A program made the translations under genes and the position numbers. A DNA stretch of 64,000 nucleotides from a virus: the IMG/VR virus record IMGVR_UViG_3300045988_171958, positions 32,001 to 96,000 of that record. One strand, written 5' to 3'. Positions 1,707-39,626 of this stretch are shown here, piece after piece. The notes beneath the pieces are model-generated. The model was not told where the DNA came from. It did not search any database and saw nothing but the letters and a program-made list of their open reading frames with translations. Every line of letters starts with the position of its first letter. Position 1 is the stretch's first letter.

Positions 1707-2360
1707 ATGATAAATTTCAATTTCATAATTGATTGCTTAGCTTCATTAAATACTATGAGGAATGATGTTGGGTCTATGAAAAACATCAATATTCTTTCTG
1801 ATATGATTAAAGAAGCTATATTGGACAATCAAACAATATATATTACAGGAATAGGTAAGCCAGGATATATAGCTCAAAAGAATGCTGCCACATTGAAATC
1901 AATAATGGTTGATGGACAATTCATAGATGCGTGCTTAGCAGGACATGGAGATTTAGGACCTATTTCAACTGACAAACCATCTTTGTTGATTGCTATGTCA
2001 AAATCTGGATGTTCAAATGAACTTTATGTGTTGTTCAAATACATGAAACAATTGCGACCAAAATGTAAAATTGCAATGATTTGCATGTCAAATGAAATGC
2101 AATTGAATAAAGTAAGGTCATGTAAAGATATTGATTTTATTTGCCATATAAAGACAGATCCAGGAGAGTTGGATGGATTTGGAATTGTACCGGCTACATC
2201 AAATATAATATTTGAAGCAGTAATGTCCACAGCTATATCTGGGGCATTCAATTCAGAAGAGCTTGGTATGGTAAACATGTGTGAAAGATTGCAAAAGAGT
2301 CATCCATCAGGAACATTGCAATCAAAAGTTACTAATCTTTTGAATACTTTAAGAAATTAA
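1707..2360 (+). CDS. SIS-domain sugar-phosphate isomerase, KdsD/KpsF-like (arabinose-5-phosphate isomerase type)
   Basis: IYITGIGKPGYIAQKNAATLKS resembles the GxGKSGxIgxKiaATlaS SIS motif. ..AGHGDLGPIS..LLIAMSKSGCSNEL resembles the HGDLG / SxSGxtxE motifs of KdsD. No CBS domains are present. Confidence 0.7.
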   Translation: MINFNFIIDCLASLNTMRNDVGSMKNINILSDMIKEAILDNQTIYITGIGKPGYIAQKNAATLKSIMVDGQFIDACLAGHGDLGPISTDKPSLLIAMSKSGCSNELYVLFKYMKQLRPKCKIAMICMSNEMQLNKVRSCKDIDFICHIKTDPGELDGFGIVPATSNIIFEAVMSTAISGAFNSEELGMVNMCERLQKSHPSGTLQSKVTNLLNTLRN

Positions 2361-2368
2361 TCTATATT
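2339..2368 (+). promoter_or_regulatory. promoter-like element (TTTGAATA-N13-ATCTATATT)
   Basis: Lies in the last codons of the SIS gene, and a second TCTATATT box follows at about 2377. Positioned upstream of the ATG at 2402. Confidence 0.4.
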
Positions 2369-2401
2369 AATATTGTCTATATTAGTATTGATTTAAAATT
2401 G

Positions 2402-3727
2402 ATGAAAATGAAAAAGAATTGTTTATTTGTTGTTCAGTCACATTATCCAGAAAGCCATTATATGGAGCTTAACTTAGAGTTAGTTTTTCCATTCTATTTG
2501 GTTACAGATGGAGAAAAAACTATAATTGAGAGAAAGATTGATGAGTTGCTTAATAAATATGATGGGGATATTTATGTTTATGAGGCATTTCATGAATATG
2601 CCGAGTTGCTAAATTCATTTCTTTGCCACAATAGAGAATCTTATGATAGAGTGCATGTAATTTCCGAAATTGATCGAATGGGTGATTTGACAAAAACTTT
2701 TTCTATTGAATGTTGGGATAAAGGTATCAGAGAAGAATTTGACCAAAAGAAATATCTTAGGGATTTGTCAACTAAAAATACATGCAGATATTTCAATCAG
2801 ATTAAAATTGAAGATGATAAAGTAATTAAGATTGCAAAGACAGAAGATGCTATCAAATTACAAAAAATTGAAAATGATTTCTACGACAAATATAGCAATA
2901 TACCATGTTTGTGCGGAAAACAAGGATATGATGAAAATAAACATGAATTGATTTTGAATAAAATCGACGGAGTAACAGCTCAAGAATGGTATTATAAAAA
3001 TGGTGATTTTAAGAAATTGATTTCTAATGTAATCAAAGCTTTACATACCATTAATGATGTTGATATAGATGTAGATGATGAAGATGAAGATATCAGAAGA
3101 GCATTCTACAATGAATTGATTGGAAAGGTATATACTAGGGTAAATCCATGTAAGAAATTGATTGATTATTTCATTGAAGAAACAGAAGTAAGGTGTATTG
3201 ATTACATGCCAATTACAACACATTTTAATGTATTGATGGATGCATTAAAGAAATGGTATGAAAATAATGAAATCAATTTCAATGCATGTCTTTGTCATGG
3301 TGACCCAAATACAGATAATACAATGATTGATAAAGATGGTAATGTAATCTTTATTGATCCTCGTGGATATTTTGGGAATCTTAAGACAATTGGATTAGGA
3401 ATGGCAGAATATGATATTGCAAAATTCTGCTATGGACTTAATGGATATTCAAGATTCAACAGTGCTCCTTATGTCACAATTGAAGAAATTGATTATTCTG
3501 ATGGTATGAATCTTAAATTAGAATATCCATCTGGTGATTTTTCTTCAATTACACAAATTGATTTGGATGATATGCCAATTGATACAAATATAAAGATTAT
3601 CGTTGGTATTATTTGGATGAAATTGACTTCATATATTATAAATGATCCAATGAAGAGTGTAATTGCTTATCTTTATGGAAATGCAATTTGTACAAAATAT
3701 TTAAAGGAATTAAAATATCTAAAGTAA
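2402..3727 (+). CDS. two-domain protein with a C-terminal APH/choline-kinase-like phosphotransferase
   Basis: CLCHGDPNTDNTMIDKDGNVIFIDPRG matches the HxDxxxxN catalytic loop plus IDxx(G) of the aminoglycoside/choline kinase fold. The N-terminal ~200 aa is unassigned. The first ATG is at 2402; the ORF track starts at the TTG at 2399. Confidence 0.7.
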   Translation: MKMKKNCLFVVQSHYPESHYMELNLELVFPFYLVTDGEKTIIERKIDELLNKYDGDIYVYEAFHEYAELLNSFLCHNRESYDRVHVISEIDRMGDLTKTFSIECWDKGIREEFDQKKYLRDLSTKNTCRYFNQIKIEDDKVIKIAKTEDAIKLQKIENDFYDKYSNIPCLCGKQGYDENKHELILNKIDGVTAQEWYYKNGDFKKLISNVIKALHTINDVDIDVDDEDEDIRRAFYNELIGKVYTRVNPCKKLIDYFIEETEVRCIDYMPITTHFNVLMDALKKWYENNEINFNACLCHGDPNTDNTMIDKDGNVIFIDPRGYFGNLKTIGLGMAEYDIAKFCYGLNGYSRFNSAPYVTIEEIDYSDGMNLKLEYPSGDFSSITQIDLDDMPIDTNIKIIVGIIWMKLTSYIINDPMKSVIAYLYGNAICTKYLKELKYLK

Positions 3728-14245: not shown

Positions 14246-15293
14246 TTATAGCTTCTACTAACTTTTCAAAGAACTTACAATTAGTTTCTTCTATGTTAGG
14301 GTCATTGATAGGAGAGCTCGGTCCAGGTGCACCATTCAATTCTACTACTATAGTGTTTCCATTCTGTAATGGTAGCATGTCAACACCACACCATTCAAGA
14401 CCAGATGCTTTAGCAGCTGCTAAAGCCAGCTTTTCTTGTTCAGAAGTCATCTTGTAGTCATCTTCCATGTCACAACCAAGACTGAGATTAGTTCTGAAGT
14501 CTTTACCTTTCTTTCTCATGATAGAAGACAATATCTTTTGCTTACCATTCAATGTAAGTACATGAGCTCTGATATCACCATCTTTTATATCTTGAAAGTC
14601 TTGTATGAGTATTGGACAGTTTTCCTTCAATTTGAACAAACATTGCAATATAGATACAATGTTTTTGCCACGACAGCAAAACACACCTTTGCCACCATGT
14701 CCATTCAGAATCTTACAAACATATTTTAATCCATCATCAAGCTTACCATAGAGTTGCTTTAGCTTTTCATCTAGCTTCTTATGATCTTCTTTATCTATAT
14801 CACCAGAAGTTGCAAGTACATATTTTGGTTGTGGAAGTTCTGCTTTTGTCAAGAAACATGCAGTTGCATATTTATCAGATGACATAGCTACTGCTTCTGG
14901 ATTGTTCAATATCAGTATATCTAATTCTTGTATAGCATCAAGTAAAGCTGATATCACTTCCTTAGTATATCCACTACGCATCAATACTACTGTGTTCTTA
15001 GAATCTGCTTTAGTAAGTACTACATCTGGCAAGTCTTTCTCTCCACTATATATGTGTACTTTATCATCTTTGAAAGAAAAGTTGAGCTTGGTAGGATCTG
15101 CATATTCTACTTTTATCTTATCTCTCTTAAGCATCTTTACAGAATTCAAGTAAAGTTCACCTATCAATATTATTCTTTCTACTTTCTTAAGCTTAGTATG
15201 ATTTTCTACTTTACTGTTACTGTTTTTTTCTACTATATATTCTATAGATTTCAGTTCAGTAATGTAGTTTGTTCCATTGTACTTCATTTTCAA
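14229..15293 (-). CDS. RimK-like ATP-grasp ligase (paralogue of the previous gene, without a peptidase domain)
   Basis: VCKILNGHGGKGVF, GDIRAHVL, FRTNLSLGCDMEDY and WCGVDMLP..VVELNGAPG align with the neighbour. There is a 17-nt overlap with the downstream gene. Confidence 0.75.
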   Translation of the reverse strand: MKMKYNGTNYITELKSIEYIVEKNSNSKVENHTKLKKVERIILIGELYLNSVKMLKRDKIKVEYADPTKLNFSFKDDKVHIYSGEKDLPDVVLTKADSKNTVVLMRSGYTKEVISALLDAIQELDILILNNPEAVAMSSDKYATACFLTKAELPQPKYVLATSGDIDKEDHKKLDEKLKQLYGKLDDGLKYVCKILNGHGGKGVFCCRGKNIVSILQCLFKLKENCPILIQDFQDIKDGDIRAHVLTLNGKQKILSSIMRKKGKDFRTNLSLGCDMEDDYKMTSEQEKLALAAAKASGLEWCGVDMLPLQNGNTIVVELNGAPGPSSPINDPNIEETNCKFFEKLVEAINELCK

Positions 15294-15381: not shown

Positions 15382-15675
15382 ATGAGTAGAATAATAGAAA
15401 TAGAAAGAGATAGCAGACCAGTAAATATAAAAGTAGGATATCTTCCAACAGAAGAAACTACTGTATATATCAAATGGGCCATATATAAAAAGAAGCATAA
15501 GTTTCTTTGGAAGACTTGGTATACATTTGATTATGACTTGACTGTACCATATATATCAGAAAAGCCATTGTCCGCAGCAGAACGTGAATCTAACATCAAA
15601 TTAGAATTAGCTAGTATAGAAGTAAGGCATAGTATCTATCAGAGAATTTTAAGTAAAAAGATGCAATTAAATTGA
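15382..15675 (+). CDS. hypothetical protein
   Basis: The internal ATG (MSRIIEIERD..) was chosen because the track start at 15277 overlaps the divergent gene and the promoter. Confidence 0.55.
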   Translation: MSRIIEIERDSRPVNIKVGYLPTEETTVYIKWAIYKKKHKFLWKTWYTFDYDLTVPYISEKPLSAAERESNIKLELASIEVRHSIYQRILSKKMQLN

Positions 15676-15699
15676 AATTTTCTATAAAGATTCTATATT
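15672..15699 (+). promoter_or_regulatory. promoter (TTGAAAT-N12-TTCTATATT)
   Basis: Consensus match, followed by TATTATGTA as in the other copies. Confidence 0.55.
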
Positions 15700-15737
15700 T
15701 ATTATGTATTATTTAAAACATTTAAAATTTGATTATT

Positions 15738-16247
15738 ATGGTTATTGCAATTATTTTAATATTGTTATCAGTTTGCTTGTTCTTGGGTTATTGCATTTAC
15801 TCAACATTTAGTGAAAGCAATTTTGATATTATAAATGATATCAGATATGATAAGAAAGGTTTCTTTGGAAGTATTGCTGTTATCATTGTATGTTTGGTAG
15901 GAATTTACTTCTGCTTTGTAACACCTACTTCATTTATCAGAAATGAGTATGTACATAAGAATGGTACAATGACAGTAGTTGAATATTCACTTACAGGTGA
16001 TTCTACAACCAATACTAATGTTAAGTTGCCAAAGACTACTTATGGAACTGTAAAAGAAGTAAAATTCCATTCAAGACTTAATGGTAAGATTTGGAATTAT
16101 TATACTGATGTTACTGTTCACCTTAATGATGGTAGAGTACTTTATAAGGAGCTTAGTGGTAAGAGAAAGTCTATTAAGGAAGGCAATGGAATGTCATTGA
16201 CAGAAACATTCTATCCTTATTACGAAATGGAATTTACATTTAATTAA
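15738..16247 (+). CDS. membrane protein with two N-terminal TM segments
   Basis: First ATG in the ORF. MVIAIILILLSVCLFLGYCIY and GSIAVIIVCLVGIYFCFV are hydrophobic helices. Confidence 0.65.
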   Translation: MVIAIILILLSVCLFLGYCIYSTFSESNFDIINDIRYDKKGFFGSIAVIIVCLVGIYFCFVTPTSFIRNEYVHKNGTMTVVEYSLTGDSTTNTNVKLPKTTYGTVKEVKFHSRLNGKIWNYYTDVTVHLNDGRVLYKELSGKRKSIKEGNGMSLTETFYPYYEMEFTFN

Positions 16248-16576: not shown

Positions 16577-17722
16577 ATGAGTTGGAAACCTAATTTTGAT
16601 TACAGCAACAAGAACATGAACTTTTATAAAGTTGGTTGTAATTTCGATCCTAAATTGATTGATGTTGCTGTAGAGTTGAATAAGAAATATAAGGGTAAGT
16701 CACAGATTGTAGAATTTTTTGGATCTGATGCAAGTAATGAAGTAGTAACTGCAAGACCAGGTTGGAGATTGCCAGATATTGATAAAGAATTCTTTGCAAA
16801 TTATGTAAAGAAGTTGAAGGATAACAATATCGCATTCAACTATACAATGAATTCAATTCAGCCTTATGGTTCAAAAATGGAAATGCTGAATCATAAGAAA
16901 GATATTCAGGATCTTGTAAAATGGCTAGAAAATATTGGTGTAGCACGTATTACTGTGGCAAACCCAATGATGTTACTTTTTATTAGAGAAGTATCAAATA
17001 TTGAAATTGAGATGTCATGTATTTCTCATATTGATACTGTGACTCAGTTGAAGTATTATCATGAAACATTTGGAGTAAATAAGTTCTGTAATTCAATTCT
17101 TAAGAATCGTAATAAGCATTTCTTAATTAATGCACAGAAGTATTGTGATGAAAATGGTTGCATATTAGAATGTATGGCAAATGAATTTTGTGGAGTAGCT
17201 GGTGTTGATGGAAATGGTACTCATTATGCCACACATTGTGTATTTAGAGATTCTTGCTATCTCTGTCATGCAACAAACAAGACAAAAGAGGATAGTATGT
17301 CTTACAATAATTATCCAATGGGATATTGTATGTCAGCACGTTCATCAACTCCAGAAGCTTGGCTTCGTATGAGATTCATTAGACCAGAGGATCAAAAAAT
17401 TTATCGTGAAAATACTGGTGTAAATTATTTTAAACTTTCTGGTAGAACTGGTACCACAGATTATCTTGAATACATTATGAATGCATATATGTCAGAAAAC
17501 TATGATGGTAATCTTCTTGGTTTGTGGAAACCTCTTTCATCAATTTATGATGGAAAAACAGAATTGAAATCTAAAACAGATATTGATATTCCAAATAAGA
17601 AGCTTGATGGATTCATCAATAAGTGGATGGATGGAAATGGATGGGAATGTGCTGACCAGATGTGTGGTACAACCTGTGATTATTGTGCAAAATTTGCTAA
17701 AGAACATAACTTATATGACTAA
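16577..17722 (+). CDS. peptidase-U32-family protein (RlhA/TrhP/UbiU-type putative hydroxylase)
   Basis: TIM-barrel-like N-terminal half (..VARITVANPMMLLFIREV..IEMSCISHIDT..), a Cys-rich block (ECMANEFCGV..THCVFRDSCYLCH) and ..VNYFKLSGRTGTTDYLEYIMNAY (compare the KIEGR block of E. coli YhbU). Family recognised by eye. Confidence 0.6.
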   Translation: MSWKPNFDYSNKNMNFYKVGCNFDPKLIDVAVELNKKYKGKSQIVEFFGSDASNEVVTARPGWRLPDIDKEFFANYVKKLKDNNIAFNYTMNSIQPYGSKMEMLNHKKDIQDLVKWLENIGVARITVANPMMLLFIREVSNIEIEMSCISHIDTVTQLKYYHETFGVNKFCNSILKNRNKHFLINAQKYCDENGCILECMANEFCGVAGVDGNGTHYATHCVFRDSCYLCHATNKTKEDSMSYNNYPMGYCMSARSSTPEAWLRMRFIRPEDQKIYRENTGVNYFKLSGRTGTTDYLEYIMNAYMSENYDGNLLGLWKPLSSIYDGKTELKSKTDIDIPNKKLDGFINKWMDGNGWECADQMCGTTCDYCAKFAKEHNLYD

Positions 17723-18038
17723 TATAACTAACTCTGATTTGAAACTTCTCAAATCATGCAGAGCAGAAATTACAAGAGGTGACCGGTCATTGGTCAACCT
17801 CTTGATTTCTAGAATGAATAATGCTATATTGATAGGAAGAATCAAGAAGAAAGCAGATGAACCTATTGTACAACCAGACAGATGGAATCATGTAATGAAA
17901 AATGTGCATAAGCAATTAGAAGGTTCAAGACTTAGTACTGAATATAAAGAAGAATTTGACTATCTTATTGATAGTATATTCAATATTATTCATGAAGTAT
18001 CATGTAAATTGCAAGAAAAGGATCATGACAATAGATAA
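17715..18038 (+). CDS. AroQ-class (type II) chorismate mutase
   Basis: LKSCRAEITRGDRSLVNLLISRMNNAILIGRIKKKADEPIVQPDRW aligns with the PheA CM domain ([30 protein letters not shown]..DIDRE), conserving the Arg11, Arg28, Lys39 and Arg51 equivalents; the Glu52 equivalent is Trp. The ATG overlaps the U32 stop region. Confidence 0.6.
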   Translation: MTNITNSDLKLLKSCRAEITRGDRSLVNLLISRMNNAILIGRIKKKADEPIVQPDRWNHVMKNVHKQLEGSRLSTEYKEEFDYLIDSIFNIIHEVSCKLQEKDHDNR

Positions 18039-19137
18039 GAAATTTGTAGACGACCACATGCAAGATAAGAATATCTTGTACATACCTATTATCTCTTCTA
18101 TAAATAGAGAGACAAACAAGTATAATTTGGATAGTGATGGAAATGTAGTACGTTTTATTACATTTTTTGAACATCATAAGAATTTCAATACTTTGACAAT
18201 ATTGCTTCCAAAGAATAATGAATCACATGATATCATTGACAGGTGGGTAAAAGACAATGATAATATTGAAATCATTTGGTCAGATAATTTTGGTAAGCAT
18301 GCTGGTGAACAAAGAAGTGATTCTGATGTTGTGAGTAAGATGGAGATGGAATTGTTTGAACTTATAAATAATCCAGATAATGATAATGATTTCAATATTG
18401 TAATGTTTGAAAGTCAATTTTTAGGAAATTTATTGGTTGACCCATATTGGTTTAAAGGATTTGAAAAGGTTTTCTGGTGTCCAGTTTGTAAGATTGATAA
18501 TGAGCATACAAGAAATTTCTTAGAGGGATATGATAATTTGAATAAGAAATTGTTTCAACTTTCGGATTGGTCAATTGTAGAAAGTCCAACACAACTCAAG
18601 AAATTCTCTTTACCAGAATGTTCAATATACCCTTATTATATGATGATGGATCGCAATCTGAAATATTTTGATTATATGACAGATTTTGGATTGAAAGATA
18701 CTATTAAAACAGTTAAGAATCTTGATACAGGTACTTATTCTATTTATTATATTCCTTATAGATTGACTGATGAAGGATATAAAGTAGATGATGTTATTTC
18801 ATATATTAATTATGACTATGCTGATGTGGTTGTTGTGTATTATACAGATCCAAACAATAGTGGAGCAATGGAAGATTTGAAGAAAAAATTCAATTCAAAT
18901 GTTGTTTTCATCAAATTATCAACAGATAGAAATACACATTTTACCATGTTGTCATCAGAAGATGTTGTTGTACCATACTTTGAAGATTTAGATTTCATCA
19001 ATCATGCAACTTTATGGGAAATGATGTCATCAAAATCAAGATGTCAATTTGGAATAACTAAGGAACAATATGATATGAATTCATATAATATGAAATCTTG
19101 TGATAGATGTTTCTATATTGATTTAAAGAATTTATAA
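18025..19137 (+). CDS. hypothetical protein (possible glycosyltransferase-like alpha/beta protein)
   Basis: 370-aa ORF from the internal ATG, overlapping the chorismate mutase stop by 14 nt (translational coupling). No motif recognised; the suggested function comes from context only. Confidence 0.35.
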   Translation: MTIDKKFVDDHMQDKNILYIPIISSINRETNKYNLDSDGNVVRFITFFEHHKNFNTLTILLPKNNESHDIIDRWVKDNDNIEIIWSDNFGKHAGEQRSDSDVVSKMEMELFELINNPDNDNDFNIVMFESQFLGNLLVDPYWFKGFEKVFWCPVCKIDNEHTRNFLEGYDNLNKKLFQLSDWSIVESPTQLKKFSLPECSIYPYYMMMDRNLKYFDYMTDFGLKDTIKTVKNLDTGTYSIYYIPYRLTDEGYKVDDVISYINYDYADVVVVYYTDPNNSGAMEDLKKKFNSNVVFIKLSTDRNTHFTMLSSEDVVVPYFEDLDFINHATLWEMMSSKSRCQFGITKEQYDMNSYNMKSCDRCFYIDLKNL

Positions 19138-19147
19138 ATGAAATAAA

Positions 19148-20371
19148 ATGAATCATGATAGTATTTTATTAAAAATCTTTTTTAATAAAGAGAATAAGAT
19201 AATTGGAGGAAAAGTAGCAAGGATAAAAAGAATATTCCCAAACATATTGTCTTATTTAAATAAAAGATATCCTGATTCATTTTCTTTAAAAGAAACTCTA
19301 ATTAGGATGAAATATCATATTGATGTTCATCCAAAATGCCCGGTTTGTGGAAATTTTACAAAGTTTTATGGGTTTAAAAATTTGATGTTTGCAAATCATT
19401 GTTCTAACAAATGTACTCAATTAGATAGTGAAACTAAAATAAAATTTAAACAAACTTGCTTTAAAAAATATGGGGTTGATGCTCCAATGAAATCTTCTAA
19501 AATAAAAGAAAAATCTAAACAAGTTTGTTTAGAAAAATATGGTGTGGAAAATATATCACAATTTTTTGAAACTAAAGAAAAATATAAACAAACTTGTTTA
19601 GAAAAATATAATGTTGATAATCCATTTAAATTAGAAAAAACGAAAATAAATTCACATTCAAAAGAAGCTAAAGAAAAGCAAAGAAAAACTTGTTTAGAAA
19701 AGTATGGAGTAGAAAATTCATTCCAATCAAAAGAAGTTAGACAAAAATATAAAGAAAATTATAAAAGAAAATATGGAGTAGAAAATCCATTTCAAAACGA
19801 AATAATAAAAGAAAAGATAAAACAAACTTGTTTAGAAAAATATGGTGTTGATAGAGCAATTAAAAGTGATTTGGTAAAAGAAAAATGTAAACAAACTTGC
19901 TTGGAAAAATATGGAAGTAGTTCACCAATGAAAAACCCATATATTGTAAATAAATCTATAAATAAGAGAATTCAAAACAATACTTGGTCTACTTCAAAAC
20001 CAGAAGAAGAATTGTATCTTTATATAAAAGAAAGATTTCCATCTGTAAAAAGACAGTATAAAGATAAAGAAAGATACCCATATTTTTGTGATTTCTACAT
20101 TCCTGAATTAGATTTGTTTTTAGAATTGAATGGGACTTGGACACATGGAAACCATCCTTATGATATGAATTCTAAAGAAGACAATTCTATATTAAATATA
20201 TGGAAAGAAAAATCTAAAGAACATCCTATGTATTTAAGTGCAATAAAAACATGGGTTGTAAGTGATGTAAATAAGAGAAATAAAGCAAAAGAAAATCATT
20301 TAAATTTTAAAGAAGTTTGGAATTTAGATGAAGGAAAAGAATTTATAAATAAATTAACTAGAAGAGAATAA
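19148..20371 (+). CDS. homing-endonuclease-like protein: Zn-ribbon, eight CLEKYGV repeats and a C-terminal PD-(D/E)XK (Vsr/DUF559-like) domain
   Basis: CPVCGN..HCSNKC at the N-terminus, then 8 copies of K-x-T-C-L-E-K-Y-G-V-x-N. The C-terminus ..YPYFCDFYIPELDLFLELNGTWTHG resembles the D..(E/D)xK nuclease core. Confidence 0.5.
   Translation: MNHDSILLKIFFNKENKIIGGKVARIKRIFPNILSYLNKRYPDSFSLKETLIRMKYHIDVHPKCPVCGNFTKFYGFKNLMFANHCSNKCTQLDSETKIKFKQTCFKKYGVDAPMKSSKIKEKSKQVCLEKYGVENISQFFETKEKYKQTCLEKYNVDNPFKLEKTKINSHSKEAKEKQRKTCLEKYGVENSFQSKEVRQKYKENYKRKYGVENPFQNEIIKEKIKQTCLEKYGVDRAIKSDLVKEKCKQTCLEKYGSSSPMKNPYIVNKSINKRIQNNTWSTSKPEEELYLYIKERFPSVKRQYKDKERYPYFCDFYIPELDLFLELNGTWTHGNHPYDMNSKEDNSILNIWKEKSKEHPMYLSAIKTWVVSDVNKRNKAKENHLNFKEVWNLDEGKEFINKLTRRE
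19441..19930 (+). repeat. in-frame tandem repeats (~90-99 nt units) encoding the CLEKYGV motif
   Basis: AAACAAACTTGTTTAGAAAAATATGGTGT-like strings recur about eight times at ~30-aa spacing. Confidence 0.7.
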
Positions 20372-20373
20372 AG

Positions 20374-21846
20374 ATGAATGTGATATTAGTAAGTGGTGGA
20401 TTACAGACTAGATTTAATGAACTTTCTTGTTTTCCTAAGATATTGTTGCCATCAAAAGATGGAACACCAATTTTGATTAAGCAATTAGATTATTTTGATG
20501 AAGCAAATACAGTAAGTATCGTTGTAAATCAAAAATTTGCAAAGATCATGAAAGCTTATATTGAAATCAATCATCTTAATGTTGATGTGATTGTATCTGA
20601 TAATACTAATGGTTCAGGCAATACTTTAGCTTCTGTATATGATTGGCTTCCAAAAAAGAATGTTTTGTTTTTCTGGTCAGATATTTTGTTTGATAATGAT
20701 GAATTCAAATTGGATAGAAAAATTGAAGATAAAGACAATTGTGTGATTTTTACTGTAAATGATGCAAAATATCGATATAAGATAGAAGATGGTAAGATTG
20801 TAAACAGATCATTTGCTTATGATGGAAATATCCCAGGTATCTTTTGGATCAAAGATATTTCAGAGGTTATTCCAACTAAACCATGTGATGAAAATAAAGA
20901 TTTGATTGATATCATTCAAGAAAAAGTGAATGATGGTATGATTACTTTTGTTGAGTCAAATATCAATACAAAGATTACTGAATATAAGTCATTATCAGAA
21001 TATAAGAAGATTATGTCAACTTCTTATCAGAAAGATTTAGTTTTACCTACTGATATGGAAGTTTCGTATACTGATAAAGAATCCATGCAATATGTAGCAA
21101 AAACAAATGAGCATTTGAATTATCAATATGACTGGATTTCTTTTTTATCTTATAATCCTGGAATTAGTGATTATGTTGTAGATATGCCAGTAAGTAAGAC
21201 AGAAGACGGATACGTTTGTGATATGCACAATCTTGAAGGATATACACATGCATCAAAGGTAAATCTTACTAATCTTTTAAACAATTTTGTAAGATATAAA
21301 GTAGATGTACCATTGTCAACATCTGTAAAATTTTTGTTAGAAGAATATAATGGTAAACCACTGAAGGGGATTTGTGATACATGCAGACTTTTTGAAAATA
21401 ACAGAACATTTGCAGAAGTTCAAACACTTATAGATAATGCATGTAATCTTCTTATAGATGGTTTAGCGAATGATGAATGGGTATTAACTCATGGAAACAT
21501 CAATTCTCATAATGTTCTTGTAAATATGACTGGTGATATCAAATTGTATAATCCAGTATCAAGAAGAAATGGATCTTTTTTCTGCCATCCAATTGTCGAC
21601 CAATCAGAAGCTTATATGGTAGAGATTGGATTAGATGAAGCTTTGAGAAAGGAAATGACATATAAAGTAGATGAACTTCCAAAGATAGAAGATTGTGATG
21701 TGTTTATTGAAACTGCTATCTATCTTCATTTACTTGGTATGCTTCCAATGTTTGCAAAAGATATTATGAAATTGAATATTGTATTGGAGTATGCTATTTC
21801 AGGATTGTCTAACATAATTAATGAATGTATTGATGGAAACAAGTAA
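20374..21846 (+). CDS. bifunctional sugar-phosphate nucleotidyltransferase / APH-like kinase
   Basis: N-terminal MNVILVSGGLQTRF..PKILLP matches the (L)AGGxGTRL..PK signature. C-terminal LTHGNINSHNVLVNMTGDIKLYNP matches the HxDxxxxN-type kinase loop. Confidence 0.65.
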   Translation: MNVILVSGGLQTRFNELSCFPKILLPSKDGTPILIKQLDYFDEANTVSIVVNQKFAKIMKAYIEINHLNVDVIVSDNTNGSGNTLASVYDWLPKKNVLFFWSDILFDNDEFKLDRKIEDKDNCVIFTVNDAKYRYKIEDGKIVNRSFAYDGNIPGIFWIKDISEVIPTKPCDENKDLIDIIQEKVNDGMITFVESNINTKITEYKSLSEYKKIMSTSYQKDLVLPTDMEVSYTDKESMQYVAKTNEHLNYQYDWISFLSYNPGISDYVVDMPVSKTEDGYVCDMHNLEGYTHASKVNLTNLLNNFVRYKVDVPLSTSVKFLLEEYNGKPLKGICDTCRLFENNRTFAEVQTLIDNACNLLIDGLANDEWVLTHGNINSHNVLVNMTGDIKLYNPVSRRNGSFFCHPIVDQSEAYMVEIGLDEALRKEMTYKVDELPKIEDCDVFIETAIYLHLLGMLPMFAKDIMKLNIVLEYAISGLSNIINECIDGNK

Positions 21847-21931
21847 GTTTAAGACATCAAGAAGAGTATTGAGAGAAGGTTTGACTTGGGCTGATTATTT
21901 TAAGTCCAAGCATACCTTAGAATATATCAAT

Positions 21932-22414
21932 ATGAAGAAAATCATAATTTCTGACTGTGATGGTATCTTGACTGATGGAAATATGACTTATGATGACAAC
22001 AGAAAACGATTTAAAACCTATGGTTGCCATGATAAGGAATTATTCAATATTGCTAAAGACCTTGGATGGGAATTCTTATTTGTAACAGATGATAGGACTG
22101 GATGTGATATTACAGACAGAAGAATAAGTAATTCTTTCATGTTACATGTTACAGAAGCTGATCCAAATGAAAGAGAAAAATTAGTTAAGAAATATAGGGA
22201 TAATGGATACATTGTTGCTTTTATTGGAGATAGTCCAAGTGATGTATCAGCTGCTGTAGCGGCAAATATATGTGCTACTACAGATAATTGCTTTGAATAT
22301 ATAAAACCATTTTTTCATTATGTTTCTAAATATCAAGGTGGACACGGAGGATTTGCTGATATATTATATCAACTAATGCTAATGGATAAAGATGATCTTG
22401 AAATCTATAAGTAA
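21932..22414 (+). CDS. HAD-IIIA phosphatase, KdsC-like
   Basis: MKKIIISDCDGILTDG matches the KdsC DxDGVLTDG motif I, and FIGDSPSDVSA matches motif IV (GDxxxD). The internal ATG was chosen because it sits 6 aa before motif I, as in KdsC. Confidence 0.7.
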   Translation: MKKIIISDCDGILTDGNMTYDDNRKRFKTYGCHDKELFNIAKDLGWEFLFVTDDRTGCDITDRRISNSFMLHVTEADPNEREKLVKKYRDNGYIVAFIGDSPSDVSAAVAANICATTDNCFEYIKPFFHYVSKYQGGHGGFADILYQLMLMDKDDLEIYK

Positions 22415-22425
22415 ATCATAAAATC

Positions 22426-22468
22426 AATACTGTATTTTTAATTTAGAAATAAATTTAAATACAGTATT
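22426..22468 (+). terminator. 12-bp hairpin directly before the next ATG
   Basis: AATACTGTATTT (22426-22437) / AAATACAGTATT (22457-22468), followed by TT and the ATG at 22471. Confidence 0.5.
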
Positions 22469-22470
22469 TT

Positions 22471-23700
22471 ATGATTAAACATATAGAAGAACCTAGTGGA
22501 AAGGGAAGAATAGCATGCATATCTTTACCAGTAAGACATATACTAGTGAATAGAGACAATATCACCATGTATAATGTATATCATTATTGGAAGTATTTGA
22601 CAGAATTTTTGAAATATGATAAAGTATATATATTGACAACATCGTTGTCTAATTCTGGTGAAAAATATAATAACATATTGAAAGATTGCCCATTGATATA
22701 TGGAATTGAAAAGAAAGACTTGTTATTAGATTATCATATAAATGACATGTGGATTGTTCCAGCTCAGACAAATATATTTGGTGGAATGGCTATTATGACC
22801 TTTCCATTTTGTATGAATAGAATATATGAATGGTGGAAATCAAAATCTGCATCAGATAAGATGATATTCATTAATGATGATCCAGAAGTATGTAAGCTTT
22901 GGTTTTTCCGATATCATACTAATCGTTATGCTATTAAGAAAGATGCAAGGATAGTGTGGAAACAAGGAATAAATCAAGATAATTGGAATACAGAAATTGA
23001 TTTGTTAGAATCAAGATATGATGATATATGCAATATGGAAAATGATTTTGATTTGGCATTTTGTGGATTAGATTATGATAAATATGTTAAAGAGTATGGG
23101 ATAAAGGTCTTGCCAAAATCTTGGTTTAATTTCAATGTTTACTATTACATTACATTAAATGATGATTTAGATTTGAGAATGAGAAATTATGACTTTAATG
23201 ATAAGAAATATTCTGCTTGCTATTATGGATATATTAAAGATTTAGATAGAATAGCTAGAACAGAAGAATTTTACAGTAAAGTTGATAAGCCATTTTTAGT
23301 AATTAAAGGAGGTAGTAAGAATTTCTTTAAACATGTAGATTTTGACCATGATATAGATCTTGTAAAAAATATGCCTTATTCAGATTTGCTAAAATTTGTT
23401 CCATCAAATGCTAAGTCTTCATTAATAACACATAACAAATGTATATTGGGTAATCAAGTATCACCAAGATGGTTTGATTTGATGCTTATGGATATTGTAT
23501 GTTTTGTTGACGAAGCTTTTGATCCAAACCATGAATTGTGTGATGATTGGCTTTATGAACATACATATTGTAAGAATGGACAAGATTATGCAGACAAGCT
23601 TAAGAAAATAGAAAACAACGAACCATTATATAGAGAGATTGTTCAAAGACAACGTAAGTTTGTATTTGAAAAGTATGAAAAATATCTCCCGAAATTCTAA
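22471..23700 (+). CDS. T4 beta-glucosyltransferase-like DNA glycosyltransferase (putative)
   Basis: ..SSLITHNKCILGNQVSPRWFDLMLMDIVCFVDEAFDPNHEL.. resembles, from memory, T4 BGT ..ALIIGDKNYNDNFITLRVWETMASDAVMLIDEEFDTKHRI... The preceding YSACYYGYIKD..R segment resembles VIYGGSFRSGQR. Confidence 0.5.
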   Translation: MIKHIEEPSGKGRIACISLPVRHILVNRDNITMYNVYHYWKYLTEFLKYDKVYILTTSLSNSGEKYNNILKDCPLIYGIEKKDLLLDYHINDMWIVPAQTNIFGGMAIMTFPFCMNRIYEWWKSKSASDKMIFINDDPEVCKLWFFRYHTNRYAIKKDARIVWKQGINQDNWNTEIDLLESRYDDICNMENDFDLAFCGLDYDKYVKEYGIKVLPKSWFNFNVYYYITLNDDLDLRMRNYDFNDKKYSACYYGYIKDLDRIARTEEFYSKVDKPFLVIKGGSKNFFKHVDFDHDIDLVKNMPYSDLLKFVPSNAKSSLITHNKCILGNQVSPRWFDLMLMDIVCFVDEAFDPNHELCDDWLYEHTYCKNGQDYADKLKKIENNEPLYREIVQRQRKFVFEKYEKYLPKF

Positions 23701-23823
23701 TTTATATATAAAGTATATTAAATTGATTAATATGAAATGGGTAGAAAATAAAACACAGATTCCTATTTATGGATATCAAATATCTACAGATGGTAAGAAG
23801 TATATTTATGTTTGTAAATAAAA

Positions 23824-24426
23824 ATGGAAAAAATTCGGATCATAGTTCTTGAAGGTTGTGATAGAACCGGTAAAGGAACATTATTGGAAAATTTAAAGAA
23901 TAGATTTGATGATTTTTTAGTATATAATCCAGTATCAGCAGAGAAGGAAAAGGTAGATTATAAAAATCCACAGAAATTTGAAGAGTGGATTAAGAAAACA
24001 ATTCGTAAAGTACTTGATGACTTATATACTATGTCAAAGTTGAATGGTACTGATAGACCTATTGTAATGGATCGTCTTTTACTTACAGATAACGTATTTG
24101 CAGATTTATTTGATCGTAAACATGTAGTGGAAAAGTATTTTGGTAGAGAAATTGAAGCAAACTTCAAATTGACTAATTACATTATGCTTTGGAGAAATCC
24201 AGAAGAGTATAAAGATCGAGTAAATTTGTTGAAAGAAAATCAAGATTTTACAGAAAAAGAAATTGATGATATTCTAAGTTTATTCAATGAATATAAGAAA
24301 TCAAATGATATAGTAAAGTTGATTGACAATACAGATACACCAGAAGATATATTAGATGATTTTGTATCAACATTTATTGAAGAAACCCCTAAATGGAAAT
24401 TAGAACATGATAGTACAACACACTAA
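23824..24426 (+). CDS. thymidylate-kinase-like (d)NMP kinase
   Basis: P-loop IIVLEGCDRTGKGTLLENL (compare IxxEGxDGxGKsT) and a downstream MDRLLLTD (DR motif). 200 aa. Confidence 0.6.
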   Translation: MEKIRIIVLEGCDRTGKGTLLENLKNRFDDFLVYNPVSAEKEKVDYKNPQKFEEWIKKTIRKVLDDLYTMSKLNGTDRPIVMDRLLLTDNVFADLFDRKHVVEKYFGREIEANFKLTNYIMLWRNPEEYKDRVNLLKENQDFTEKEIDDILSLFNEYKKSNDIVKLIDNTDTPEDILDDFVSTFIEETPKWKLEHDSTTH

Positions 24427-25009
24427 AACATTGAATTATACAAAACCTACAGATTTGTTCAATTATATTATAGATACATATAAGGATGAACAGTATATGA
24501 AAGATTATGTTCTTAGTGCATCTAGAACAGAAATTTTAGAAGATTATACAAGTAGGAAGAAGGTAATGGTAACTGATGTTTTACCGTTAGGTGAAAAGGA
24601 CTATGATAAAGATGCATTAGATTTTGCTACACAACTTGGATGGGAATTTACATTATATTCAGATAATAGTATATGCCCATTATATGATGAACAGGATTGG
24701 TTAGCAAGTTGGAATTGCTACCATTATGATGATGTAGAAAAAATATGTACTTATATTCGTTCAAAGAGAAATAATGGATATACAACAGCATTCATTGGAT
24801 ATAAGATGGAAGATGTATTTGCAATGTTTGAAGCAAATTATAGTGGTACTTGTGTTGATGCATTACAATATACAAAGCAATATTGTGATTTTGTATCTGA
24901 TAGGACATTCAATTCATTTGCCTTTGCTGAATTGTTAGTACATATAGTAAAACAAGATGTGAAGAAATTCTTAAGAGAAAATTTCCAAAAATATTTTATT
25001 AAAAAGTGA
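24407..25009 (+). CDS. degenerate KdsC-like HAD paralogue (probable pseudoenzyme)
   Basis: QLGWEFTLYSDN and RNNGYTTAFIGYKMEDVFA align with DLGWEFLFVTDD and RDNGYIVAFIGDSPSDVSA of 21932-22414. Motif I is VTDVLPLGE (no DxD) and the motif IV aspartates are lost. Confidence 0.55.
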   Translation: MIVQHTKTLNYTKPTDLFNYIIDTYKDEQYMKDYVLSASRTEILEDYTSRKKVMVTDVLPLGEKDYDKDALDFATQLGWEFTLYSDNSICPLYDEQDWLASWNCYHYDDVEKICTYIRSKRNNGYTTAFIGYKMEDVFAMFEANYSGTCVDALQYTKQYCDFVSDRTFNSFAFAELLVHIVKQDVKKFLRENFQKYFIKK

Positions 25010-25450: not shown

Positions 25451-25505
25451 GTTCTGCCATTTCTAATTGATGTTTAATAATTTAAAAAGTAAAATTAAAA
25501 GAAAA

Positions 25506-26639
25506 ATGAAGAAGTTTATTTTAACAATGTTGCTGGCTTTGACAGCAGTATTTAGTGTTAATGCTCAGACACAGTCTAATTATGCTGGTAGTTCTAAGTT
25601 TATGGACAATGTTTCTGTCGGTGTAGTTGGTGGTGTTGAGACTAATCTCAATCAGTGGAATTGGCCACATGGTGCTGTAACTGGTATTGTTATCAATAAG
25701 GAAATTACTCCAGTATTTGGTGTAACACTTGAAGGTACAACTGGTATCAATAACATTACTAATTGGAATAATGGATATCGAACTAGTTGCAGCAATGCAT
25801 TTGATACTTGGTCAGTAATGATTGCAGGACGTGTAAATCTTACTAATGCTATTTGGAAGTATAATGGTAAGCCACGTAAGTTCGAAGTAGAGACTAATAC
25901 AGGTATTGGATACGGTAATATGCACCATGCTTATCATATTGATGGTCTATGGAATGATCCAGAGCATCTTGCAAACCATTACATGTGCAAGCTTGGTCTT
26001 AATCTGAATTATAACGTAACAGATGCATGGACTATTACTTTGCGACCAGCAGTTATTTATGCTATTAGTGAATATAATGGAGCAAATTTTGATACACGTA
26101 CTTCTGTAGCACAGCTTACTGCAGGTATTGTATATCACTTCAAGACAAGCAATGGTACTCGATCATTCAATAAGGCTAAGCTTTATGACCAGGCAGAGGT
26201 TGATATGTTGAATGGAAAGATCAATACACTTCAGAAGAATCTTAATGATGCAAATGCAACTATTGAGGTAATGCGTGATTCTCTTACAAAGACAAATACT
26301 TTGATTGAGACAAATGAGGTAACTAAGATGGTATATCCAAAGATTCAGTTTAAGAAGGGTACAGCTAAGATTGAGTCAACATCTATGGCTAATATTTATG
26401 ATATTGCTGATGCATTAAAAGATGTTGATGGTACTATCAAGGTAACTGGATATGCTTCTACTGAAGGTTCTACTAAATATAATAAAGAACTTTCACTCAA
26501 GCGAGCAGTAGCAGTTAAGAATGCACTTATCAAGGCAGGTGTTGATGCATCAAAGATTAAGACTATCGGTGCTGGTCCTGTAAATAAGTTCTCTCCTGAT
26601 AACCTTGAGTTGAATAGAATTGTTACAACAGAGAAGTAA
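25506..26639 (+). CDS. OmpA-family outer-membrane protein with a signal peptide
   Basis: Signal peptide MKKFILTMLLALTAVFSVNAQ, an aromatic-rich beta-barrel-like N-terminal half and a coiled-coil linker. The C-terminal OmpA_C-like region is FKKGTAKIE..VTGYASTEGSTKYNKELSLKRAVAVKNALIKAGV. Confidence 0.8.
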   Translation: MKKFILTMLLALTAVFSVNAQTQSNYAGSSKFMDNVSVGVVGGVETNLNQWNWPHGAVTGIVINKEITPVFGVTLEGTTGINNITNWNNGYRTSCSNAFDTWSVMIAGRVNLTNAIWKYNGKPRKFEVETNTGIGYGNMHHAYHIDGLWNDPEHLANHYMCKLGLNLNYNVTDAWTITLRPAVIYAISEYNGANFDTRTSVAQLTAGIVYHFKTSNGTRSFNKAKLYDQAEVDMLNGKINTLQKNLNDANATIEVMRDSLTKTNTLIETNEVTKMVYPKIQFKKGTAKIESTSMANIYDIADALKDVDGTIKVTGYASTEGSTKYNKELSLKRAVAVKNALIKAGVDASKIKTIGAGPVNKFSPDNLELNRIVTTEK

Positions 26640-39334: not shown

Positions 39335-39626
39335 AAGCGTAATACTACAGCCCATCTAAAACCTCTCGAACCATGCTTAATGGGTGTGGCAGCATAAGAA
39401 AATAAATAAGCTGCTGCTAACGGTTAGGTCCATTTATAATAGATGGATGAGATCCGTGCTAAATTGATAAATTTATTTATCATAAAGGTGTATCGACTAT
39501 CCCTGATGAGTGTAAGGGAGTAGAATCTGAGATAAGCACAGATTCGGAGCGTGAGGCCTCTGTTCATTTATGATAAATGAACTTAGGAACATATAGTCAG
39601 TCCTGTTAGTAATAACAGATAAGATG
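39335..39626 (+). other. group I self-splicing intron (292 nt, no internal ORF)
   Basis: P1 pairs exon GATGGGT (39328-39334) with intron GCCCATC (39350-39356), with a U.G wobble at the splice site. P10 pairs 3' exon TGTAG (39627-39631) with CTACA (39345-39349), immediately 5' of the guide. The intron ends in G (39626), contains several GC-rich hairpins, and splicing restores the frame. Confidence 0.8.

Follow-up and report, generated by a model that had tools for sequence, protein, structure and literature searches.

A predicted glycosyl-5-hydroxycytosine DNA hypermodification cluster in a jumbo phage, with a U32-family protein as candidate oxygen-independent hydroxylase

The window, a 64,000-nucleotide stretch of a 293,853-bp (~294-kb) jumbo-phage contig of 31% GC, carries a gene set that, judged by sequence comparison, corresponds in gene-for-gene homology to the arabinosyl-5-hydroxycytosine (ara-5hoC) DNA hypermodification clusters known from RB69, DLP3 and Serratia phage 92A1. 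In the absence of any chemistry on the DNA, it is likely that the set serves DNA glycosylation of the 5-hydroxycytosine (5hoC) type, and probable, if less firmly so, that the sugar is arabinose. The complete reading, a glycosyl-5hoC cluster of arabinosyl type in which hydroxylation is O2-independent and depends on a U32-family protein and prephenate, is only modestly favoured, the host being unresolved. If U32 replaces the O2-requiring synthase of known systems, the cluster may represent an undescribed oxygen-independent route to 5-hydroxycytosine. The genes concerned are the following.

1707..2360, + strand: arabinose-5-phosphate isomerase, KdsD-like SIS protein (phrog_5670, NCBIfam KdsD)
2399..3727, + strand: sugar kinase, AfhE-type paralogue (phrog_4098, blastp to 92A1)
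16577..17722, + strand: divergent U32-family protein, predicted Fe-S, RB69 gp50 orthologue (PF01136, phrog_5757)
17715..18038, + strand: chorismate mutase, AroQ/CM_2 (PF01817)
18025..19137, + strand: Aat, homologue of the first 5hoC arabinosyltransferase (blastp, hhalign)
19148..20371, + strand: homing endonuclease, DUF7487 (PF24308, phrog_3339, phrog_12131)
20374..21846, + strand: NDP-sugar pyrophosphorylase with C-terminal pseudo-kinase, second AfhE paralogue (phrog_4098, NCBIfam)
21932..22414, + strand: KdsC-like HAD sugar-phosphate phosphatase, alternative start 21833 (NF058599, TIGR01670)
22471..23700, + strand: T4 beta-glucosyltransferase-family (GT-B) DNA glycosyltransferase (phrog_7922, fold)
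23824..24426, + strand: Tmk-like P-loop nucleotide kinase, RB69 gp45 / DLP3 gp78 analogue (phrog_761)
24407..25009, + strand: catalytically degenerate HAD paralogue (tblastn to the HAD at 21932)

All seven ORFs singled out in a preliminary description of this DNA are found at the coordinates given there, and profile searches agree with the functions predicted for them. The operon that it delimited at 20374-25009 holds the five genes it named, and these are the 3' portion of a longer co-oriented string, 16577-25009. The functional unit begins at 16577, not 20374, and takes in U32, chorismate mutase and a second glycosyltransferase (18025-19137). Two further cluster genes (1707-3727) lie apart from this string. 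Because five related jumbo-phage contigs (87-98% amino-acid identity) show this gene order too, and the same families co-locate, in different orders, in more distant phages, the arrangement is not due to chance. The phage, which is known solely from metagenomes, also encodes a class III (anaerobic) ribonucleotide reductase (RNR), NrdD/NrdG, and has an NDK gene just beyond the window edge.

The ara-5hoC clusters of the Straboviridae comprise RB69 gp45-55, DLP3 gp76-83, the Afh genes of HY126, and those of Serratia phage 92A1 and Shewanella phage Thanatos. The RB69/DLP3 cluster is characterised in PMC13326640, which also relays the HY126 work. Homology to these characterised clusters (PMC13326640) supports the earlier prediction of glycosylated hypermodified DNA, made with a phage-encoded pathway to an activated pentose, a glycosyltransferase acting on DNA and a nucleotide kinase; 5-hydroxymethylcytosine (5hmC), which had been taken as the acceptor in the known arabinosylating systems, must be replaced by 5-hydroxycytosine (PMC13326640). 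Common to the window and the Straboviridae are the isomerase, the AfhE-type kinase/nucleotidyltransferase, a HAD phosphatase, Aat, the Tmk-like kinase and U32; an adjacent chorismate mutase (CM) is present in 92A1 and Thanatos as well, and U32-CM-(ThyA)-Aat is the local order on both sides. In contrast to the Straboviridae, the cluster in the window lacks a ThyA-type 5hodCMP synthase, as does the whole of the 84 kb examined, and the bifunctional AfhE is represented by two paralogues, one kinase-dead and one without the nucleotidyltransferase core. The phosphatase is KdsC-like rather than AfhF-like, the extra transferase belongs to the BGT family rather than being GT4-like, a degenerate HAD is added, and the carrier is a 294-kb jumbo phage rather than a T4-like phage.

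The enzymes of sugar supply can be traced individually. The isomerase (1707-2360) matches phrog_5670 (6.1e-23) and NCBIfam KdsD (3.6e-16), is 32.6% identical to the 92A1 isomerase, and is inferred to make Ara5P from ribulose-5-P. The APH-type kinase (2399-3727) aligns with phrog_4098 positions 199-505 (6.7e-55) and with residues 177-509 of the 92A1 nucleotidyltransferase/kinase (blastp, 2e-31); in the alignments its motifs CHGDPNTDN and FIDPRGYFG are intact and the nucleotidyltransferase core is missing. The complementary part is carried by 20374-21846, whose N-terminal region matches phrog_4098 residues 4-192 (E 4e-26) and an NCBIfam sugar-1-P nucleotidyltransferase model (3e-6) and keeps the GGLQTRF motif. 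Of the fused nucleotidyltransferase/kinase first described here, the former half therefore stands, whereas the aligned C-terminal kinase-like motifs are degenerate (HGD to HGN, IDP to YNP). Both AfhE-type activities are thus represented, on two paralogues. The HAD at 21932-22414 matches NF058599 (KdsC/KDN-9-P-phosphatase-like, 8.8e-14) and TIGR01670 (2.2e-9) with intact DxD and GDxxxD motifs, and blast shows no resemblance between it and the HAD of 92A1; by sequence it appears to be an analogue, not an orthologue, of the Straboviridae AfhF-type HAD, which makes the identity of the sugar less certain. In HY126 the order is isomerase, 1-kinase (giving Ara-1,5-P2), 5-phosphatase and nucleotidyltransferase, as relayed in PMC13326640, so the dephosphorylation before anomeric phosphorylation initially envisaged is to be reversed.

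Transfer is represented twice. The Aat homologue (18025-19137), which the first reading of the sequence overlooked, occupies the position of RB69 gp46:47, DLP3 gp79 and Thanatos TH1_063. It resembles the 92A1 protein encoded between ThyA and Tmk (blastp, 35% identity, 2.6e-6; profile-profile hhalign, 98.3% probability, E 1.1e-14 over 265 columns) and has 48 homologue clusters. The second enzyme (22471-23700) had been likened to T4 BGT, a claim that would have failed had it proved a surface-polysaccharide transferase unrelated to the BGT fold; it passed, BGT being the top structural match. Taken alone, the sequence hits only phrog_7922 (1.4e-7), but 23 of the 44 family members match PF09198, and the family profile matches PDB 1bgt over its full length (2.4e-58). 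The AF2 model (pLDDT 93) has T4 BGT as its best six Foldseek matches in the PDB (best E 1.5e-12; TM 0.75 on the target). It shares the GT-B fold of T4 BGT (PF09198; PDB 1bgt, 1nzd), and its near-invariant D137 ('NDDPE') falls in the same profile column as the catalytic base D100, a position acidic in both; unlike T4 BGT it is ~60 residues longer, at ~15% identity. Given the 5hoC/arabinose context, both acceptor and donor sugar probably differ from those of T4 BGT, and the enzyme's probable role is to attach either a second sugar or a different first one. The Tmk-like kinase (23824-24426; phrog_761, 1.2e-9), a proposed 5hodCMP kinase, adjoins Aat in nearly all loci surveyed by HMM.

The KdsD-like isomerase and KdsC-like phosphatase belong to Kdo-pathway families, and relatives encode a protein of DAHP/KDO8P-synthase fold; the genes might therefore act not on DNA but on virion proteins or on a glycan of the host's LPS or capsule that contains Kdo or arabinose. 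This is highly improbable. No KdsA or KdsB was found in Pfam scans of 34 window ORFs, among them all those of 130 aa or more beyond 28 kb, and the synthase of the relatives scores as DAHPS (163 bits) over KDO8PS (56 bits), has a KPRT motif and is fused to chorismate mutase. The two transferases, moreover, are of phage families specific to DNA, and a nucleotide kinase is integral to the cluster. A Kdo-related sugar, also considered at the outset, is unlikely.

For the base, the Straboviridae have a ThyA-type 5hodCMP synthase, which suffices for 5hoC synthesis in E. coli (PMC13326640) and which, according to that source, requires FMN and O2, as shown by 18O2 labelling. No ThyA-family gene was found in the window plus 10 kb on each side (Pfam, tblastn, HMM at E<=10), the same queries detecting the divergent Straboviridae synthases as positive control; the earlier remark that no hydroxymethylase is visible in the window likewise holds by Pfam, tblastn and HMM, flanks included. 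Nor was a 5hodCMP synthase with D169N / N177D found in this 84 kb, which is 29% of the 294 kb. Where 92A1 has the order U32 - x - CM - ThyA - Aat - Tmk, the genes in the window overlap and run U32 - CM - Aat, ThyA being absent, and the syntenic ThyA slot is occupied by U32 translationally coupled to chorismate mutase.

A survey of 40 U32 loci, 15 Straboviridae-type and 25 other, extends this comparison. A ThyA-family gene lies beside U32 and Aat in all 15 of the former, and the 5hodCMP-synthase signature E143/N169/D177 is present in the four synthases sampled. In the 25 others U32 accompanies the transferase and kinase, and none has a 5hodCMP-type ThyA within 10 kb; the sole ThyA (locus L030) bears the canonical L143/D169/N177 signature. 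Six loci are pared down to Tmk-Aat-U32. The reassembled, full-length 43,970-bp contig IMGVR_UViG_3300045988_074298 combines Tmk-Aat-U32 with UDP-galactopyranose mutase and has no ThyA anywhere, so that U32 goes with the genes for the base regardless of which sugar is used. Rhizobium phage RL38J1 (galactosyl/glucosyl-5hoC) likewise has Aat-type, Tmk-like and UDP-galactopyranose mutase genes, but with a ThyA-type 5hodCMP synthase where this contig has U32. Comparative genomics thus supports the original suggestion that U32 and chorismate mutase, not a thymidylate-synthase-like enzyme, make the acceptor.

Since just 84 of 294 kb were examined, however, a ThyA-type synthase might lie elsewhere in the genome. 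Glycosyl-5hoC would then be made as in the Straboviridae by an enzyme encoded in the unexamined ~210 kb, with U32 and chorismate mutase as a conditional backup or engaged in a further sugar or base change. U32 could indeed have another role, since in 15/15 Straboviridae-type loci it coexists with a ThyA-family gene adjoining Aat, and the ThyA-type enzyme yields 5hoC by itself; nucleotide-metabolism genes of jumbo phages are, besides, often scattered. This explanation remains possible though rather doubtful: the synthase adjoins Aat and Tmk in every characterised cluster and the slot in the window is shut, neither the 25 other loci, within 10 kb, nor the full-length 44-kb contig supplies one, and the known enzyme needs O2, yet the phage has an anaerobic RNR.

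The candidate hydroxylase, U32 (16577-17722), matches PF01136 at 26.2 bits (cut-off 22.4) and phrog_5757 at 5e-115, and is 46-49% identical over its full length to 222 Straboviridae records. It is an orthologue (47-49% identical) of RB69 gp50, which is labelled a 'sugar or heterocycle reductase' (PMC13326640). Its AF2 model (pLDDT 90) has U32 peptidase 5d88 as best PDB fold match (E 5.8e-8). The protein shares the U32 TIM-barrel fold with RlhA (ho5C2501, 23S rRNA), TrhP (ho5U34, tRNA) and UbiU/UbiV (ubiquinone); hhalign against UbiU/TrhP/RlhA gives 96% probability (E 3e-9), whereas the curated NCBIfam models of TrhP, RlhA, UbiU and UbiV give no match at E<=0.1, so that it would form a separate phage-borne subfamily. 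Of the four residues that ligate the 4Fe-4S cluster in UbiU, three (C169/C176/C193) align with C221/C227/C251 (54/54 conserved); the fourth, C232, lands in an insertion, C205 (54/54) and C171 (53/54) being candidate substitutes. The spacing is C-x5-C-x23-C, as against C-x6-C-x15/16-C in the known factors, and an invariant C-terminal C-x4-C-x3-C-x2-C cluster is added. Whereas those factors act on RNA or a quinone, the phage protein would act on DNA or a deoxynucleotide.

RlhA makes 5-hydroxycytidine in rRNA and requires prephenate and Fe-S (PMC5727448), its product being the base modification that the window pathway needs; for UbiU/V the oxygen donor is prephenate, and no U32 protein has so far displayed direct hydroxylase activity in a reconstituted system (PMC10990095). 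The phage U32 resembles the U32 hydroxylation factors in being linked, at the level of genes, to the supply of prephenate. Chorismate mutase (17715-18038; PF01817 at 2.8e-14, 53.5 bits, cut-off 27) has its start codon overlapping the U32 stop codon, adjoins U32 in 92A1 (4.6e-10) and in 13/15 Straboviridae-type loci, and is fused to DAHP synthase beside U32 in five loci (L008, L023-L026). It is the proposed prephenate supplier, on genomic linkage only, and U32 is a candidate prephenate-dependent, O2-independent C5-hydroxylase yielding 5-hydroxycytosine, both activity and prephenate dependence being inferred. Whether U32 with prephenate is the hydroxylase is evenly poised, inferred rather than shown, with the host's oxygen physiology unresolved. 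The host pattern speaks in favour: Acinetobacter, a strict aerobe, is not one of the top genera for phages with U32, although 57 Acinetobacter phages have the sugar enzyme. A link between U32/CM and the base acceptor was not found in the literature searched, which did not cover Mahler 2025 (Cell Host Microbe) or He 2026 (Nat Chem Biol), either of which may treat U32.

Chorismate mutase might also be a stand-alone metabolic gene, and 5hmC is the acceptor for which BGT-family activity has been characterised; U32 and CM could accordingly serve unrelated aromatic amino acid metabolism while the BGT-family enzyme acts as in T4 on 5hmC or 5hmU made elsewhere. This is unlikely, as no hydroxymethylase (ThyA fold) was found in the 84 kb examined either, the Aat homologue lies in a family tied to 5hoC, and the translationally coupled U32-CM pair sits between Aat and sugar genes in many lineages.

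The 5hoC pathway with U32 as hydroxylase can then be outlined by inference, its sugar branch from homology to characterised enzymes. The isomerase would turn ribulose-5-P into Ara5P, which the kinase at 2399-3727 would phosphorylate to Ara-1,5-P2; the KdsC-like HAD would then yield Ara-1-P, and the nucleotidyltransferase at 20374-21846 NDP-arabinofuranose. U32 would hydroxylate C5 of dCMP, or of cytosine already in DNA, with oxygen from prephenate made by the coupled chorismate mutase and without O2; 5hodCMP would be raised to the triphosphate by the Tmk-like kinase and the phage NDK. 5hoC would receive its first sugar from the Aat homologue and a further or alternative one from the BGT-family enzyme.

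Two genes of the string stand outside this scheme. The last (24407-25009), rightly called a degenerate HAD paralogue, is 26-28% identical to the HAD at 21932 (tblastn, E 1e-9), no longer carries the DxD or GD motif, and starts within the kinase gene; it is kept even in L008, where the active HAD is missing. The homing endonuclease (19148-20371; PF24308 at 2.4e-40, also phrog_3339 and phrog_12131) is missing at the equivalent position in L006, L007, L009, L010 and L011, and is on this comparison a mobile insertion, no component of the pathway.

All seven open reading frames from which the preliminary description inferred glycosylated, hypermodified DNA are present, and the function that it proposed for each is backed by profile searches. 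Its operon at 20374-25009 contains the genes claimed, but the start was misplaced: the unit begins at 16577 and takes in a U32 protein, a chorismate mutase (CM) and a homologue of Aat, the first arabinosyltransferase of the 5-hydroxycytosine (5hoC) systems. The overall interpretation stands with such refinements, although DNA modification itself is inferred. The genes concerned are as follows.

Genes of the proposed hypermodification cluster
1707-2360, KdsD-type arabinose-5-phosphate isomerase (phrog_5670, 6e-23)
2399-3727, kinase paralogue (C-terminal kinase part of phrog_4098, 6.7e-55)
16577-17722, U32 protein
17715-18038, CM
18025-19137, Aat-like protein
19148-20371, homing endonuclease (DUF7487, 2.4e-40), between the Aat-like and nucleotidyltransferase genes
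20374-21846, 490-aa protein with N-terminal sugar-1-phosphate nucleotidyltransferase domain (N-terminal part of phrog_4098, 4e-26; NCBIfam, 3e-6)
21932-22414, KdsC/KDN-9-phosphate-phosphatase-like HAD protein (8.8e-14)
22471-23700, 409-aa protein like T4 beta-glucosyltransferase (BGT)
23824-24426, Tmk-like kinase, a 200-aa P-loop protein (phrog_761, 1.2e-9)
24407-25009, degenerate HAD paralogue (26-28% identity to the HAD protein, E 1e-9; DxD and GD motifs lost)

The string from 16577 to 25009 is co-oriented and tightly packed, and the window proteins pair one by one with those of Serratia phage 92A1. The 92A1 protein that occupies the Aat slot has its homologue in the product of 18025-19137 (blastp 2.6e-6; profile-profile 98.3% probability, E 1.1e-14, 265 columns), and therefore the whole string is taken as the functional unit. 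This reading frame was absent from the preliminary list. The homing endonuclease is considered an insertion because it is missing from five close relatives (loci L006, L007 and L009-L011), in which the Aat-like and nucleotidyltransferase genes are directly adjacent.

Glycosylated 5hoC was worked out as recently as 2025-2026, and the sole biosynthetic entry to 5hoC of which we know requires molecular oxygen, so that its occurrence in phages whose hosts are strict anaerobes, gut phages for example, would be unexplained. The DNA of RB69 and DLP3 carries arabinose on 5hoC and not, as the preliminary description has it for RB69-type phages, on 5-hmC (Lee et al., NAR 2026, PMC13326640). The described cluster comprises an arabinose-5-phosphate isomerase, a bifunctional kinase/nucleotidyltransferase (AfhE in HY126), a HAD phosphatase (AfhF), the initial arabinosyltransferase (RB69 gp46:47 or DLP3 gp79), a Tmk-like kinase and a ThyA-homologue 5hodCMP synthase, which uses FMN and O2 according to 18O2 labelling (PMC13326640). 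Lee et al. list RB69 gp50 only as a "sugar or heterocycle reductase", and mention tRNA and rRNA hydroxylation pathways without drawing a link to gp50 (PMC13326640). We found no paper tying U32 or chorismate mutase to phage 5hoC, two key recent papers lying outside the search.

Judged by sequence, the window cluster as a whole is related to these systems and differs from them as a variant. Straboviridae have one bifunctional kinase/nucleotidyltransferase, whereas the window phage has two specialised paralogues. Aligned with the bifunctional enzymes of Straboviridae, the product of 20374-21846 still has the nucleotidyltransferase motif GGLQTRF but shows mutated kinase motifs (HGD to HGN, IDP to YNP), while the 2399-3727 product retains CHGDPNTDN and FIDPRGYFG and is missing the nucleotidyltransferase core. 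These complementary losses imply that a bifunctional enzyme was duplicated and subfunctionalised. The phosphatase is a case of non-orthologous displacement, the KdsC-like protein being unrelated to the Straboviridae HAD enzyme; the sugar is inferred to be arabinose, and this displacement makes the inference slightly less certain. A Kdo-related sugar had also been entertained, yet a Kdo pathway appears unlikely for this cluster: Pfam scans of 34 window reading frames yielded no KdsA or KdsB, and the DAHPS/KDO8PS-fold gene of some relatives scores 163 bits as DAHPS against 56 as KDO8PS, is fused to CM and carries the KPRT motif, which is specific to DAHPS. The degenerate HAD gene always overlaps that of the Tmk-like kinase and is kept in L008, a related IMG/VR locus whose site is without the active HAD, nucleotidyltransferase and BGT-like genes, which suggests a putative non-catalytic role linked to the kinase.

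Alone, the 409-aa BGT-like protein gave only weak matches (phrog_7922, 1.4e-7; Glyco_trans_1_2 under cut-off), and a word-indexed search returned just five close clusters; exhaustive phmmer over 1.8 billion representatives gave 53 relatives. PF09198 (T4 beta-glucosyltransferase) is matched by 23 of the 44 aligned family members, and the family profile gives a full-length match to PDB 1bgt (2.4e-58). For the AlphaFold model (pLDDT 93.2) the six best PDB matches are all T4 BGT (E 1.5e-12, TM 0.75), six orders of magnitude ahead of the next fold, and the near-invariant D137 aligns with D100, the catalytic base of BGT. The lack of any relation to the BGT fold, which the preliminary description had named as refuting its claim, is thus not what was found. 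The order in which the Aat-like and BGT-like transferases would act is inferred.

The ThyA-type synthase adjoins Aat and Tmk in every characterised cluster; in the window, overlapping genes leave no room for it there. Pfam, tblastn and HMM searches at E<=10 found no ThyA-family sequence in the window or in 10 kb on each side; the same queries readily pick up divergent Straboviridae synthases. These searches covered 84 of the 294 kb of the genome, and this partial inspection is the main weakness of the proposal that U32 replaces ThyA.

Co-occurrence was surveyed with our own HMMs in 39 IMG/VR loci that contain U32, together with their 10-kb flanks, the window being counted in addition. A ThyA-family gene stands beside U32 and Aat in all 15 Straboviridae-type loci, and the 5hodCMP-synthase signature E143/N169/D177 is present in all four Straboviridae synthases sampled; CM adjoins U32 in 13 of the 15 (that of 92A1 is Pfam-confirmed, 4.6e-10). 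Among the 25 other loci, window included, an Aat homologue is nearby in 20, and the HMM scan of the 10-kb flanks revealed no 5hodCMP-type ThyA in any; the lone ThyA, in L030, has the canonical signature L143/D169/N177. Outside Straboviridae, U32 and the ThyA-type 5hodCMP synthase exclude each other in these 25 loci.

Four of the 25 loci, one of them cut off at a contig end, have the compact order Aat, Tmk, isomerase, nucleotidyltransferase/kinase, DAHP synthase-CM fusion, KdsC-like HAD and U32. L008 (IMGVR_UViG_3300001525_000092) encodes such a fusion immediately after U32 (11142-12236; NF006421, 1.1e-47). In all, L008 and L023-L026 have a DAHP synthase with C-terminal CM beside U32; such a virus thus encodes both the entry step of the shikimate pathway and the one that forms prephenate. 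Six of the 25 loci are reduced to Tmk-Aat-U32. One of them, L038 (IMGVR_UViG_3300045988_074298), was reassembled in full from three overlapping segments, and no ThyA-family gene occurs anywhere in its 43,970 bp. After Tmk-Aat-U32 come a weak TET-associated-glycosyltransferase-like protein, a dUTPase, a 596-aa reading frame, UDP-galactopyranose mutase (6.7e-78) and a DXD glycosyltransferase. This small phage, with its further glycosyltransferase candidates, may carry a galactofuranosyl-5hoC-type modification. U32 thus goes with the transferase and the nucleotide kinase, the base-side genes, whatever the sugar. The 596-aa reading frame is unannotated, without Pfam match, and is possibly a DNA polymerase.

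Acinetobacter is a strict aerobe. An AfhE-type enzyme occurs in 57 Acinetobacter phage records, and Acinetobacter is not among the top genera for U32; Acinetobacter phage Berthold has the order isomerase, kinase/nucleotidyltransferase, HAD, ThyA, Aat and Tmk, without U32 or CM. This host distribution fits an O2-independent role for U32.

The U32 protein lies above the Pfam U32 threshold. Its counterparts in 222 Straboviridae genomes, the orthologues of RB69 gp50, share 46-49% identity with it along its entire length. The window protein has no NCBIfam match and no phmmer match to PDB sequences; its model (pLDDT 90) best matches 5d88, to our knowledge the one U32 structure solved so far. RlhA, TrhP and UbiU/V, the hydroxylation factors known to work without O2, are U32 proteins. 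Single-sequence hhalign against UbiU, UbiV and TrhP was too weak, significance being reached only with larger alignments on both sides: a 54-sequence profile matched E. coli UbiU/TrhP/RlhA with 96% probability (E 3e-9). This match puts the invariant C221, C227 and C251 of the phage protein on C169, C176 and C193 of UbiU, three of its four demonstrated [4Fe-4S] ligands (PMC6747719). At the U32-CM junction the stop and start codons overlap, as do the end of CM and the start of the Aat-like gene. Chorismate mutase produces prephenate. Prephenate is required for the synthesis of 5-hydroxycytidine by RlhA (PMC5727448) and is the proven oxygen donor for UbiU/V (PMC10990095).

What the sequences themselves show is gene content, homology and fold, the conservation of Fe-S-type cysteines, gene order and the pattern of co-occurrence. 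On this basis the window cluster is best read as one for an arabinosyl-5hoC-type DNA hypermodification in which the hydroxylated base comes, without O2, from the U32/prephenate module. Prephenate made by CM would feed the U32 Fe-S enzyme, which would hydroxylate the cytosine base; an O2-free base supply would suit a phage with an anaerobic ribonucleotide reductase. By inference, the RB69 gp50 family would hydroxylate deoxycytidylate or DNA cytosine at C5 in a prephenate-dependent reaction that needs no O2. It would be a non-orthologous substitute for the ThyA-type synthase, serving as sole route in phages of anaerobes such as this jumbo phage and as backup in those of facultative anaerobes, a proposal that may equally well prove right or wrong. 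This hydroxylase hypothesis is the novel element, and we hold it with belief and doubt in about equal measure. T4-like phages have, alongside U32, a ThyA-type enzyme that suffices by itself, so some role other than base hydroxylation cannot be excluded.

The locus and its relatives offer a concrete, testable answer to anaerobic 5hoC synthesis, in which phage-encoded enzymes would make the prephenate that a U32 Fe-S enzyme uses. If true, base hydroxylation by U32 would be the first DNA-directed function of that family, would assign a function to RB69 gp50, conserved in more than 200 sequenced T4-like phages, and would open a workable assay for U32 hydroxylase chemistry, which has yet to be reconstituted. 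It would likewise mark the first time that shikimate-pathway enzymes, chorismate mutase and DAHP synthase, are seen to have been recruited by a virus in the service of DNA modification, would extend hypermodified DNA to gut jumbo phages, with bearing on restriction and CRISPR evasion and on sequencing bias, and would yield new DNA glycosyltransferases for biotechnology.

The window corresponds to about 92.6-156.6 kb of a 293,853-bp jumbo-phage contig of 31% GC (GCA_902729945.1, CACVDK010000001.1). Megablast of the operon against phage genomes gave no match, and no nucleotide-level relative was found among deposited phage genomes. A promoter and terminator scan did no better than on shuffled sequence. 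Besides a gp32-like SSB, the window and its flanks encode the following.

Other features of the window and its flanks
12479-14245 and 14229-15293, minus strand, two RimK-like ATP-grasp proteins adjoining structural genes, one fused to an NlpC/P60 peptidase domain
25467-26639, OmpA-family protein with signal peptide and beta-barrel-like N-terminal half, immediately downstream of the operon
37880-39397, 39368-39619 and 39624-40670, split class III anaerobic ribonucleotide reductase gene nrdD (two reading frames and a gap)
40718-41275, NrdG, following nrdD
46618-48573 and 48674-49705, chaperone pair DnaK (full-length Hsp70, 4.9e-204) and DnaJ
55150-63027, minus strand, 2,625-aa reading frame with no family in the precomputed Pfam table
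15452-15805 of the upstream flank (L018), Tad6-family protein (PF25188)
1886-2326 of the downstream flank (L019), nucleoside diphosphate kinase (PF00334)

No Rfam family was found at the gathering threshold; the nrdD gap shows a full-length match to the group I intron model RF00028 at 30.6 bits (E 5e-6), under the gathering score of 50, an arrangement that we take to be reminiscent of the T4 nrdD intron. Copies of the OmpA-like gene with 80% identity occur on MAG contigs labelled Romboutsia (L056, L057), but only such contigs were matched and they are probably mis-binned phage, so the host is not resolved. The Tad6-family gene lies about 4-5 kb ahead of the window start, and the nucleoside diphosphate kinase gene, relevant to 5hodCTP synthesis, about 7 kb past its end.
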